Source: Spirochaetia bacterium
GTDB taxonomy: Bacteria; Spirochaetota; Spirochaetia; CADAEX01
NCBI GenBank assembly: GCA_963662265.2
Contig: CAXXHA010000010.1
Location: 256,001-320,000 of the forward strand
Length of the DNA stretch: 64,000 nt
Direction of reading: 5' to 3'
Positions within the stretch are counted from its first letter, which is position 1; each line of letters opens with the position of its first letter. A program made the position numbers and the translations under genes. The notes under the pieces are model-generated. The model worked only from the letters and a program-made list of their open reading frames with translations, ran no database searches and was not told the origin of the DNA. Positions 13,713 to 62,089 of the stretch are shown here, in pieces.

Positions 13713-14408
13713 ATGGTTAAAGTAATATCATTAGGGGGCTCTATTGTTGCCCCGGAACAGGTTGATACAGCCTTTTTAAAAGAATTTCATTCACTGATAA
13801 AGAAATATCTTGAGGAAGATAAAAGCAGAAAACTCATCCTTGTAATTGGAGGAGGGGGACCTGCAAGAAGCTATCAGAAAGCATACAGGGAAATTGCCGA
13901 TACACCATCCAGCGACAGGCAGGATTGGATCGGCATTGCAGCAACAAGGCTTAACGGAGAACTTCTCAAGTCTGTATTCGGTGAATTCTGTAAGAATGCT
14001 GTTGTTGCAGATCCTACAGCTGTAAAGGAATTCAATGACAGAATTCTTGTGGCTGCCGGATGGAAACCCGGATTCTCAACAGATTTCGATGCAGTTCTTC
14101 TCGCGGAAAAATTCAATGCGAAAACTGTAATCAATCTCTCAAACATTTCAAAGGTTTATTCTGAAGATCCTAAAATCAATCCATCGGCAGTTCCAATGGA
14201 TAAGATGAACTGGGGAGAATTCAAAAAGCTTGTCGGTGAAGAATGGATACCAGGCAAAAATGTTCCGTTTGATCCTGTAGCAACAAAAAAAGCGGCTGAA
14301 CTCGGCATGCAGGTTATTGTTGCAGGCGGCAGGGACATACAGAACCTTGATCTGATCCTTCAGGACAGACACGATGAGATTGAAGGGACTCTTATAGGTC
14401 CGGAATAG
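13713..14408 (+). CDS. pyrH: Uridylate kinase (archaeal-type)
   Basis: VISLGGS, IGGGGPAR, IGIAATRLN, GWKPGFSTD, VYSEDPK, PFDPVA. Confidence 0.93.
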   Translation: MVKVISLGGSIVAPEQVDTAFLKEFHSLIKKYLEEDKSRKLILVIGGGGPARSYQKAYREIADTPSSDRQDWIGIAATRLNGELLKSVFGEFCKNAVVADPTAVKEFNDRILVAAGWKPGFSTDFDAVLLAEKFNAKTVINLSNISKVYSEDPKINPSAVPMDKMNWGEFKKLVGEEWIPGKNVPFDPVATKKAAELGMQVIVAGGRDIQNLDLILQDRHDEIEGTLIGPE

Positions 14409-14465: not shown

Positions 14466-14499
14466 CAGCCTGTATAATTTATTTTATGCAGGCTGTTTT
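14466..14499 (+). terminator. Probable pyrH terminator
   Basis: CAGCCTGTATAA / TTATGCAGGCTG stem (one G-U pair) followed by TTTT. Confidence 0.6.
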
Positions 14500-14519
14500 G
14501 CATACAGGACGTATGCATG

Positions 14520-14640
14520 CCGGGCTGGCATGGACGCCCGTTAACGAGGCGAATGACAGGATGTCATTCCCGCAAGGGGACAGGTGTATACCGGGCTGGC
14601 ATGGACGCCCGCAAACGAGGTATATGACAGGAGATCATCC
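14520..14640 (+). repeat. Imperfect direct repeat, two copies with a 71-bp period, containing GGA-loop hairpins
   Basis: CCGGGCTGGCATGGACGCCCG..AACGAGG...ATGACAGGA...CAT at 14520 and 14591. Confidence 0.85.
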
Positions 14641-14910
14641 ACTTTCGCATGAACCGAAGGTATTGGAATGCCCCGGCAATACAGATGACACCGGGCAGAC
14701 AGGGCCGCCTTTTTATACTGCGTACAAAACCAGATAGATATTCAGGTTTAGGAACAGGACGCCTGCCCTGAGACATGAATGATATACGGCACTGATGATT
14801 TAACACGAAGACCTGAGGAACACACAAATTCATACATTTAACTGTTTTTCAGAAAAAAACAGCAGATAATCAGCGATATTCGATGGATATTATATTCTTC
14901 AGTTAAGCAT

Positions 14911-60890: not shown

Positions 60891-61152
60891 GATCTGTTAT
60901 TTACGGGCACCTCTAAATTAACATTTTATAAGATATTTTCCACGGAAAAATTCCGGGATAAATGAAACAATCAGAAAAACACGGAGTGCTTCTCTTCTTT
61001 ATTGAAATAATAACCTTAATTCCGCACTAAAGACAATCCCGTTTAAACAAACAATGGAAATCGGTAATAAAATAAAAAAGAATTTCTCTGTATCAGGAAA
61101 AATCCGTGCAGATTAACAGAAAAGTTTATAAAAAGAGCAAAAAAAAAACCTC

Positions 61153-61256
61153 CAGCTGTCAAGCTGGCTGTGTCACACTGCTCAGTCACTTACCGCTGCT
61201 ACCTTCCGGTCCTGACGGGGTTGGGTGAAAAGCAATTGCACAGGGCCTGACAACTG
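61153..61256 (-). ncRNA. ffs: Signal recognition particle RNA (small bacterial SRP/4.5S)
   Basis: Helix-8 motif TCAGGACCGGAAGGTAGCAGC within a long stem; upstream of dnaX. Confidence 0.93.
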
Positions 61257-61264
61257 AAGGAATA

Positions 61265-61349
61265 CGGAGAGAGGGGGATTCGAACCCCCGGTACCTTGCG
61301 GTACATACGCTTTCCAAGCGCACTCCTTCGGCCTCTCGGACATCTCTCC
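61265..61349 (-). tRNA. tRNA-Ser(GGA)
   Basis: TGCGC-TTGGAAA-GCGTA anticodon arm, long variable arm, GGTTCGAATCC. Confidence 0.97.
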
Positions 61350-61374
61350 TATTTCAGCCACTATCAATGTGTTC

Positions 61375-61513
61375 CGGAGAGAGAGGGATTTGCCTTACAA
61401 GTCCGGACGTCCTGTCCGACCTTTTCAGGCCGCTCGGCAAGCTGGCGCCCCGGCGTCCTGCCGGTCTTACCCTTTCGGGCGCTTGCAGGAGATCAAATCC
61501 CACTTCAACCTCC
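61375..61513 (-). ncRNA. Putative tRNA-linked structured RNA with two AGGAC-loop hairpins
   Basis: GGGATTTG/CAAATCCC closing stem, tRNA-Ser-like 3' end, CCGGC-AGGAC-GCCGG and CGGAC-AGGAC-GTCCG hairpins. Confidence 0.55.
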
Positions 61514-61562
61514 GTATTTAAGGCAAAAAGCATGATTGTTGCTTATCTGCCACAGATAAAAA

Positions 61563-61650
61563 CGAGAGAGAGAGGGATTTGAACCCTCGGAACTGTAAAC
61601 AGCTCAACGGATTTCGAATCCGCCCGATTCAGCCACTCTCGCATCTCTCC
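61563..61650 (-). tRNA. tRNA-Ser(CGA)
   Basis: GCGGA-TTCGAAA-TCCGT anticodon arm; the 3' acceptor strand seems to carry one extra base. Confidence 0.92.
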
Positions 61651-61660
61651 AAGCGAAAAG

Positions 61661-61734
61661 TGTGCCCAAGAGGATTCGAACCTCCGACCTTTAGATCCGC
61701 AATCTAATGCTCTATCCAGCTGAGCTATGGGCAC
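61661..61734 (-). tRNA. tRNA-Arg(GCG)
   Basis: TTAGA-TTGCGGA-TCTAA anticodon arm; GTGCCCA/TGGGCAC acceptor stem. Confidence 0.96.
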
Positions 61735-61852
61735 AAGTAAAAAAGTATTGCCCCGAAAAATACTGCACAGGTTAGAACCTGAATCAATACATACCTGATA
61801 TCTCAAAGCAGGACGTTGTGTTAATTATATGCAGCATTTGGATAAAAAAAAA

Positions 61853-61940
61853 CGGAGAGGGAGGGATTCGAACCCTCGGTACCCGCAATGGATACAACTC
61901 CTTAGCAGGGAGCCCGATTCAACCACTCTCGCACCTCTCC
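61853..61940 (-). tRNA. tRNA-Ser(GCT)
   Basis: GCTCC-CTGCTAA-GGAGT anticodon arm, long variable arm. Confidence 0.97.
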
Positions 61941-61960
61941 AGTGAATCCGAAAAATTATA

Positions 61961-62045
61961 CGGAGAAGGTGGGATTCGAACCCACGGACGCTTGCACGTC
62001 AACAGTTTTCAAGACTGCCTCCTTCGACCACTCGGACACCTCTCC
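61961..62045 (-). tRNA. tRNA-Ser(TGA)
   Basis: GCAGT-CTTGAAA-ACTGT anticodon arm, long variable arm. Confidence 0.97.
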
Positions 62046-62060
62046 ATCAATTGCCTTTGC

Positions 62061-62089
62061 AATATATATAATTATCATTTGTTTGTCAA
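62061..62089 (-). promoter_or_regulatory. sigma70 promoter of the tRNA/SRP operon
   Basis: TTGACA-17 bp-TATATT about 15 nt upstream of tRNA-Ser(TGA). Confidence 0.75.

Follow-up and report, generated by a model that had tools for sequence, protein, structure and literature searches.

What is a 139-base sequence that ends like a tRNA doing between two tRNA genes? In the 64,000-nucleotide stretch of spirochaete DNA analysed here, which we call the window, the minus strand from 61513 to 61375 is flanked by the genes for tRNA-Ser(CGA) and tRNA-Ser(GGA). Read from the sequence, this element begins with GGAG and finishes with CAAATCCCTCTCTCTCCG. An earlier note on the same DNA described a tRNA mimic carrying two AGGAC hairpins and suggested that it titrates CsrA; the position, the GGAG start and the hairpins that it listed are all to be seen on the minus strand. 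Does the element fold beyond chance, and does it occur elsewhere? How did it come to lie behind a tRNA gene? Is CsrA a credible partner, and which known RNAs does it resemble?

The host operon

On the minus strand the order is tRNA-Ser(TGA), tRNA-Ser(GCT), tRNA-Arg(GCG), tRNA-Ser(CGA), the element, tRNA-Ser(GGA) and the small SRP RNA, with dnaX following (Table 1). A single promoter-like site and a single terminator-like site bracket the operon, and a scan of the unit revealed no other terminator-like site between them; co-transcription is therefore predicted, in agreement with the earlier note, and the element would be part of one stable-RNA transcription unit on the tRNA strand. A consensus scan predicts no promoter of the element's own. 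Four sets of metatranscriptome contigs include none over 61372-61541, a result that has no bearing on expression either way. Two RNA contigs from relatives have tRNA-Ser(CGA) joined to tRNA-Ser(GGA) by 20 other letters, which is the empty form of the interval.

Table 1. Features of the stable-RNA operon and of the element, in window coordinates
Feature	Position	Strand	Remarks
Promoter-like site TTGACA-17-TATATT (11/12)	62061..62089	-	Upstream of first tRNA; consensus scan only
tRNA-Ser(TGA)	61960..62046	-	ARAGORN, Rfam
tRNA-Ser(GCT)	61852..61941	-	ARAGORN, Rfam
tRNA-Arg(GCG)	61660..61734	-	ARAGORN, Rfam
tRNA-Ser(CGA)	61564..61650	-	Host gene of the element
Left direct repeat CAAATCCCTCTCTCTC	61566..61581	-	T-loop 3' half into acceptor 3' strand of tRNA-Ser(CGA)
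AT-rich 50-nt spacer	61514..61563	-	Missing from the G001 empty site
Inverted copy of tRNA 3' end	61494..61513	-	5' strand of closing helix P1
Hairpin a, CCC-GAAA-GGG	61470..61479	-	Sequence variable, covarying across the family
Hairpin b, CCGGC-AGGAC-GCCGG	61450..61464	-	Covarying stem
Central conserved stretch GGCGCCAGC..GAGCGG	61428..61449	-	Family consensus cgccAG.ga..g..gcgG; pairing uncertain
Helix P3 (GCCT/AGGC)	61393..61430	-	With internal loops, hairpin d as cap
Hairpin d, CGGAC-AGGAC-GTCCG	61404..61418	-	Caps P3
Right direct repeat CAAATCCCTCTCTCTCCG	61375..61392	-	T-loop C56 to G73; 3' strand of P1 and tail
tRNA-Ser(GGA)	61265..61349	-	ARAGORN, Rfam
Small SRP RNA	61154..61252	-	RF00169, 72.8 bits
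Terminator-like hairpin and T run	61152..61167	-	End of SRP RNA

Sequence and fold of the element

ARAGORN calls no tRNA on the element, as the earlier note had expected, and RF00005 has no match there; neither a D arm nor an anticodon arm is present. By eye only, 19 of 22 positions in a stretch of the core are like the D/anticodon region of tRNA-Ser(TGA), which touches on the idea of a degenerate tRNA-Ser. Rfam 15 gives no match on the element even at E ≤ 10, bar a sub-threshold one to sX4 at 61504-61657 that lies mostly over tRNA-Ser(CGA) and touches the first 10 bases of the element. Similar matches to sX4 (RF02223, a proteobacterial sRNA), which score 27-34 bits where the gathering score is 70, occur at other loci (L136:2127-2284, L123:97-241 and others) and there cover a tRNA-Ser plus the start of an element.

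The minus strand folds with a minimum free energy of -61.2 kcal/mol (z = -2.77), equalled by 2 of 200 shuffles, and the plus strand folds no better than its shuffles (z = -0.87). Covariance models of the family described below score the window copy at 98-115 bits, and because of these scores and the covariation the element can be placed beyond chance.

RNAalifold and the models agree on a closing helix (P1), hairpin a, hairpin b, the central stretch and helix P3 capped by hairpin d. The closing helix, in which the inverted copy of the tRNA 3' end pairs with the direct one, imitates a T stem. In the window copy AGTGGGATTTG matches the beginning of the direct copy in a gapped local alignment of 11 nt with one bulged C, and an imperfect extension towards an acceptor-like stem comes from pairing of GGAG with CTCC. 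The earlier note had the element closed by two stems, GGGATTTG/CAAATCCC and TGCAAG/CTTGTA. Both are present in the window copy; the first is kept throughout the family, together with hairpins a, b and d and the GCCT/AGGC helix, and the second lies outside the family consensus. GGA occurs in a loop at two sites only in this copy, those of hairpins b and d.

A family of elements linked to stable-RNA genes

An initial pattern scan of genome contigs yielded abundant chance matches in high-GC genomes, with three records (seven matches) being real. A covariance model built from 8 copies (R1) and a second built from 53 hits (R2) were then used. R1 has matches at E ≤ 0.01 in 54 of the 151 sampled genomes of the window's class and none in the remaining 97; 44 of the 54 reach E ≤ 1e-7 (a count from the result table). 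There are up to 11 matches per genome, plus tandem arrays, among them five units with a period of 185 in G081. The window's own genome has six copies, those outside the window lying behind tRNA-Leu(GAG), as three tandem 204-bp units, tRNA-Arg(TCG) and tRNA-Arg(TCT). In a genome from another family of the same class (G034) the same operon carries three homologous elements, each directly 3' of a tRNA-Ser. Two further public records hold two copies each, and the record taxa include Spirochaetales and Spirochaetaceae.

Across the phylum, R2 has matches at E ≤ 1e-4 in 19 of 151 sampled genomes, including three families of other classes. None of five genomes from other phyla matched, a sample too small to infer absence there. 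Among 80 viral loci tested with R2, drawn from at least 120 viral pattern matches, there is no member; one marginal viral match (16 bits) falls inside a coding region and was rejected.

The earlier note had suggested seeking copies beside other tRNA genes, and that is where most of them are. After four rows repeating one record were dropped, 62 distinct hits remained. In 52 of them the gene immediately 5' on the same strand encodes a tRNA or tmRNA, and in 7 it is another copy that precedes. The other three comprise two at contig ends and one (L146:1632-1740, minus strand) that follows a 5'-truncated remnant like tRNA-Gly(CCC), consisting of the 3' two-thirds and without an ARAGORN call. The hosts comprise 16 tRNA species and, in three genomes, tmRNA.

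We conclude, at a probability of roughly 0.85, that the element is one copy of a structured RNA family of about 140 nt, linked to tRNA and tmRNA genes, with an architecture like that of tRNA-linked repeats (TLRs) and belonging to the Spirochaetota. The family is absent from Rfam 15, so such stretches are at present unannotated in spirochaete genomes, and the literature searched yielded no description of such repeats in spirochaetes.

Covariation, divergence and variants

The pairing proposed for the window copy is maintained in relatives, where the earlier note had looked to covariation as a check. In an alignment of 48 distinct rows the paired share of cells is 90.0%, compared with 66.2% in shuffles; none of 500 shuffles reaches the observed level, and slid partners pair in 27-44%. 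Changes on both sides are seen in 29 of 33 pairs; we caution that the alignment is model-fitted, which favours the pairing figure. The closing helix (helix 1) is 94% paired. The numerous A-G and G-A cells come from one form of hairpin a, which has tandem G-A pairs. There are 30 G-U pairs to 23 A-C mismatches, not an excess, so the pairing carries no signal as to strand or to RNA.

In its core the window copy has no more than 64% identity with any copy sampled, and 43-54% with the others in its own genome, yet the fold is kept. That copies so diverged retain their fold by double changes indicates an old family with its fold under selection. Nearest relatives of the window copy include copies linked to tRNA-Ser(CGA) in other families and one linked to tRNA-Met (63%).

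Reduced forms of about 93-111 nt also occur (L303:213-801 (G144), L297:1501-1593, L302 (G012, G007)). Hairpin b is missing from them and a short capped stem stands in place of hairpin d, but the helix of tRNA copies is still there, as are hairpin a and the central stretch. In G144, which has CsrA, at least five such units without hairpins b and d stand in tandem. Since the reduced copies keep it without b and d, the scaffold of tRNA-copy helix, hairpin a and central stretch must have its own reason to persist.

Two long variants behind tRNA-Ser(CGA) (L002:820-1001 and L122:1501-1690, the latter on the minus strand) carry an extra 5' domain with GAAGCTTCCGACCAGGTTGAAC, which resembles, by eye, GAAGCTTCGACCAAGGTTCGAC in the RtT repeat of E. 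coli. In the tRNA-Ser(CGA)/tRNA-Ser(GGA) interval of another spirochaete genome, a match to Flavo-1 RNA (RF01705, 62.9 bits with a gathering score of 42; L136:2355-2435) lies within or beside a degenerate copy of the element.

Insertion at tRNA 3' ends

In a genome of the same genus (G001) the operon is the same and only about 24 nt separate Ser(CGA) from Ser(GGA), a precise empty site. Compared with it the window carries a 189-bp insert with the direct repeat CAAATCCCTCTCTCTC on both edges. The 50-nt spacer is part of the inserted segment, because the empty site is without it. The final 18 nt of the element are the native 3' end of tRNA-Ser(CGA) in G001 (18/18) and 16 nt at the 3' end are identical to the window's own upstream tRNA, which bears out the match to the tRNA-Ser T-loop and acceptor end that the earlier note had pointed to. 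The left repeat now completes the tRNA-Ser(CGA) of the window, with an extra TC relative to the downstream copy and to the same-genus allele, and this end of the gene (61563-61581, minus strand) reads ...CCCTCTCTCTCTCG. The extra TC leads to G1-U72 and C73 in place of G1-C72 and G73. With 48.5 bits this is the lowest-scoring tRNA of the operon; the extra TC may be genuine, or the assembly may have slipped in a TC run.

The same arrangement is found family-wide. An exact direct repeat of the host's 3' end, from T-loop position 56, has a median length of 18 nt and is at least 14 nt in 48 of 58 cases. It often runs 6-13 nt beyond the tRNA into the trailer, with exact matches of up to 31 nt, and similarity further into the trailer is present in diverged form. 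The repeat extends into the trailer, and therefore it was DNA that was duplicated and not the mature tRNA. At the 5' start of the copies stands an inverted copy (median 9 nt, range 4-17, 55 copies), measured by gapped local alignment to allow for a 1-nt bulge; it reaches the acceptor strand in 20 of the 55.

A tRNA 3' end duplicated either side of a 189-bp insert, in a class of genes (tRNA and tmRNA) that are established as classic integrase targets, brings to mind an integrative element that entered the 3' end of tRNA-Ser(CGA) and left an attR scar or a cis-mobilisable remnant there. The earlier note had named such a scar as an outcome that would overturn its proposal. Among the 142 open frames flanking 32 loci there is no integrase, and no transposase or reverse transcriptase either. 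The interior is a conserved, covarying fold, and the repeats follow the host gene of each copy, over 16 tRNA species and tmRNA, a match that no fixed attP would provide. Moreover, the right repeat is not abutted by the T-stem 5' strand that a crossover in the T loop would leave. The scar reading is largely refuted and we regard it as very improbable.

The element might instead belong to a selfish or neutral DNA repeat, made up of the tRNA 3' part with trailer, an inverted copy and a core, whose transcript is functionless in trans. Such a repeat would spread and amplify where tRNA genes end, through duplication and recombination, and be lost when its direct repeats recombine with each other. 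The multiple copies, the tandem arrays in the window's own genome, G081 and G144, and the absence of a G-U excess sit well with this, as does duplication at the level of DNA. So does the turnover: presence or absence at each tRNA locus differs among three species of one genus, and the empty site in G001 is precise. Against it, the copies are old and diverged, yet double changes in 29 of the 33 pairs maintain the fold, which argues for selection, and the loop motifs keep their position. The flanking frames and the 80 viral loci offer no vehicle, and relatives behind tRNA-Ser(CGA) elsewhere fit long residence at a locus. On balance we consider a selfish or neutral repeat unlikely.

A role in binding CsrA?

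The earlier note proposed that the RNA is excised by tRNA-processing enzymes and couples CsrA titration to stable-RNA synthesis. In such a scheme the element would be transcribed together with the tRNAs, released upstream by 3' cleavage of tRNA-Ser(CGA) and downstream by an RNase P cut at tRNA-Ser(GGA), then trimmed to its tRNA-like end. Hairpins b and d would present GGA loops like those in the two flaB leaders of the same genome, one CsrA dimer would be bound per RNA, and free CsrA would be tied to the rate of stable-RNA synthesis.

The window's own genome encodes csrA (92 bits) adjacent to fliW (C8:144951-145505). About 8 kb away the two flaB leaders contain the hairpins CAGGC-AAGGAT-GCCTG and AAGGGC-AGGGAT-GCCTTT (C8; L294:1457-1472 and L294:2797-2814), some 15-20 nt ahead of a GGA-containing Shine-Dalgarno sequence in each case. 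Their loops, of the form A(A/G)GGAU, are closed by G-C pairs. Within that 1.6 kb no other local match of R2 scores better than these two, which align to hairpin b at 7.3 and 5.5 bits, not significant alone. Flagellin leaders are established targets of CsrA, and for T. denticola such sites are reported close to the Shine-Dalgarno sequence of both flaB1 and flaB2 (PMC9481697, available portion). FliW is the presumed CsrA antagonist in spirochaetes according to the accessible part of PMC8668096, and one predicted 'CsrA-like ncRNA' of possible relevance appears for L. biflexa in that of PMC4863578.

In the 47 distinct copies the loop of hairpin b is CAGGANG or CANGGANG in 41, and GGA is in the loop of hairpin b in 42 and of hairpin d in 30; loops that have grown to 8 nt retain it. 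CsrA is encoded in every one of the 44 genomes with strong hits, compared with 118 of 151 overall, no strong hit falls in the 33 genomes without CsrA, and full-length copies are confined to genomes with CsrA. Two genomes without CsrA do have copies, which are forms of about 93 nt lacking hairpins b and d. This co-occurrence is confounded by phylogeny because the genomes lacking CsrA belong to only about seven lineages.

Other observations count against CsrA. Loops of CACGA type, without GGA, recur in hairpin d (15 of 47) and hairpin b (4 of 47). GGA is not enriched, with 5.0 per core against 4.4 expected from mononucleotide shuffles; it stands at five positions in 65-81% of copies with a total not above composition. 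The window copy offers two loop sites only, and the reduced copies, including the tandem units of G144 with its CsrA, offer neither hairpin. The low predictor scores of the tRNA-linked repeats in E. coli and the presumed role of FliW as antagonist in spirochaetes point the same way. Genome-wide, GCA(N)GGAYGC occurs 92 times compared with 5 for a control, a difference that weighs neither for nor against because the control contains CpG and most of the sites are probably coding.

These recurrent CACGA loops would suit a different explanation, in which the family is a structured trailer of stable RNAs that acts in cis or else through some protein that is not CsrA. As a module of tRNA and tmRNA transcripts it might serve their processing, termination or stability. 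Or it might be a decoy, either for an enzyme that binds T arms or for a dimeric hairpin-binding protein that recognises CA(G/C)GAUG loops and so tolerates G or C. The location fits, since 59 of 62 copies follow a stable-RNA gene or another copy in the same orientation, and the closing helix mimics a T arm with the acceptor 3' strand left as a tail. The scaffold also persists without hairpins b and d, including in the two genomes that lack CsrA. At the tRNA-Leu locus of the window's own genome each unit is behind a terminator-like hairpin, as are copies at single-tRNA loci, a dual-terminator layout reminiscent of the rRNA-linked repeats of E. coli (PMC8144298, accessible text). Expression from single-tRNA loci of this kind would need read-through, which speaks against a function at the RNA level in general. 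A processing role is difficult to reconcile with the majority of tRNA genes and of genomes that do without a copy (97 of 151 in the class), so the element is not needed for that purpose, and no candidate protein was found. We think a trailer of this sort quite unlikely.

Returning to CsrA, titration by the element is plausible, with indirect support from the hairpins, the gene content and the co-occurrence. The specific proposal, that hairpins b and d bind one CsrA dimer per molecule and thereby link free CsrA to how fast stable RNAs are made, is the likeliest function and has about one chance in three of being right, and the whole chain of family, architecture and CsrA decoy we would put at somewhat under even odds. 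If the CsrA reading is true, an RNA layer is added to the spirochaete circuit of FliW, CsrA and flagellin. In the available portions of papers on that circuit (PMC8668096, PMC9481697) FliW is the sole antagonist named. It is a doubtful, wider conjecture that these are the first RNA antagonists of FliW-partnered CsrA, and that phylum-wide flagellin-leader decoys and the E. coli TLRs form one ancient class coupled to stable RNA. Were that so, decoys would ride in tRNA, tmRNA and SRP units, free CsrA and flagellin synthesis would track stable-RNA synthesis, and the scaffold of a regulator would be the T arm of its host gene copied in both orientations.

Comparison with known RNAs

With tRNA, the tRNA-like domain of tmRNA and YrlA the element shares T-stem-like pairing, partly acceptor-like in the window copy, and a discriminator G at the end. 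It differs in having no D arm, anticodon arm or T loop, and no cloverleaf results. The YrlA model reaches 18.6 bits, on the neighbouring tRNA only.

The likeness to CsrB and RsmZ lies in a predicted small RNA of several hairpins, with GGA in loops and linkers at a total not above composition, in a genome that encodes CsrA, and the form of the hairpins is that of the flagellin leaders, which are classic CsrA targets. Unlike those RNAs, the element matches no Csr or Rsm family in Rfam, is predicted to lack its own promoter and has two loop sites in the window copy, CsrA binding here being putative. The CsrA concerned is also of the FliW-partnered type, for which the available text of PMC8668096 establishes no RNA antagonist.

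The same hairpin module recurs within the window. The earlier note had grouped the element with another some 14.5 kb into the window on the strength of a shared loop motif. That grouping is not supported, since the only match is a local one to hairpin b at 10.3 bits, and the candidate was rejected as a member; a module is held in common, not a family. The region in question (14486-14720, plus strand) is intergenic, after an open reading frame ending at 14408. In it CCGGGCTGGCATGGACGCCCG..AACGAGG occurs twice, ahead of hairpins with loops AGGAC, AGGAT and AGGAG (CAGGAYG type), and the fold has a z of only -1.63. It could be a separate RNA that uses the module.

The closest parallel is with the TLRs of E. 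coli, for which the comparison set was TLR, RtT RNA (RF00391) and rrA/rrB/rrF, with the tyrT-tyrV locus of K-12. [quoted passage not shown] Three of them, the rRNA-linked ones, sit between dual terminators; in vitro these bind both Hfq and CsrA. The other 19, which are tRNA-linked, score below 0.01 in a predictor of CsrA binding (PMC8144298, same portion). What the earlier note said of these repeats is thus right on the copied tRNA 3' ends, and on CsrA binding in vitro it applies to the rRNA-linked three and not to the tRNA-linked 19.

Both kinds lie directly behind a stable-RNA gene in the same operon, and in both the 3' end is an exact copy, about 18 nt long, of the 3' end of the upstream gene. 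In RtT as here an inverted copy pairs with the tRNA 3' copy to form an outer helix with a single-stranded tail; the consensus of that helix in Rfam is GgGaaGGAU/AUCCuuCcC, and in this respect the likeness that the earlier note drew is well founded (compare PMC8144298, available text). A GC-rich core of several hairpins, tandem arrays, a short CGCCAGCGAG-like stretch and, at some loci, dual terminators (E. coli rRNA-linked repeats, same portion of PMC8144298; the spirochaete tRNA-Leu locus) are further points in common. The differences are that the E. coli repeats come from another phylum, that spirochaete hosts include tmRNA and, among the copies examined, no rRNA gene, and that the spirochaete copies have two hairpins with loops of CAGGAYG type.

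Homology to RtT was considered and is undetectable by the model of either family. RF00391 gives no match at E ≤ 10 on the window copy or on nine other spirochaete loci, none of which reaches its gathering score of 45 bits, and the E. coli control scores 133-137 bits. R1 and R2 score 3.9 and 6.7 bits on the E. coli repeats (E 0.1-0.6), yet these are their top hits on the right strand.

The hallmarks of a TLR are present here nonetheless: a place in a stable-RNA operon, a copy of the host's 3' end and an outer helix with an acceptor-strand tail. Judged by these features of sequence, the family is a phylum-wide spirochaete variant of the tRNA-linked-repeat kind, with homology to the E. coli repeats undetectable. 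There is no agreement yet on what the TLRs of E. coli, known since 1978, do (PMC8144298, available text). A second such family in a distant phylum, with dozens of diverged copies, strong covariation and the same odd architecture, offers comparative material on that puzzle.
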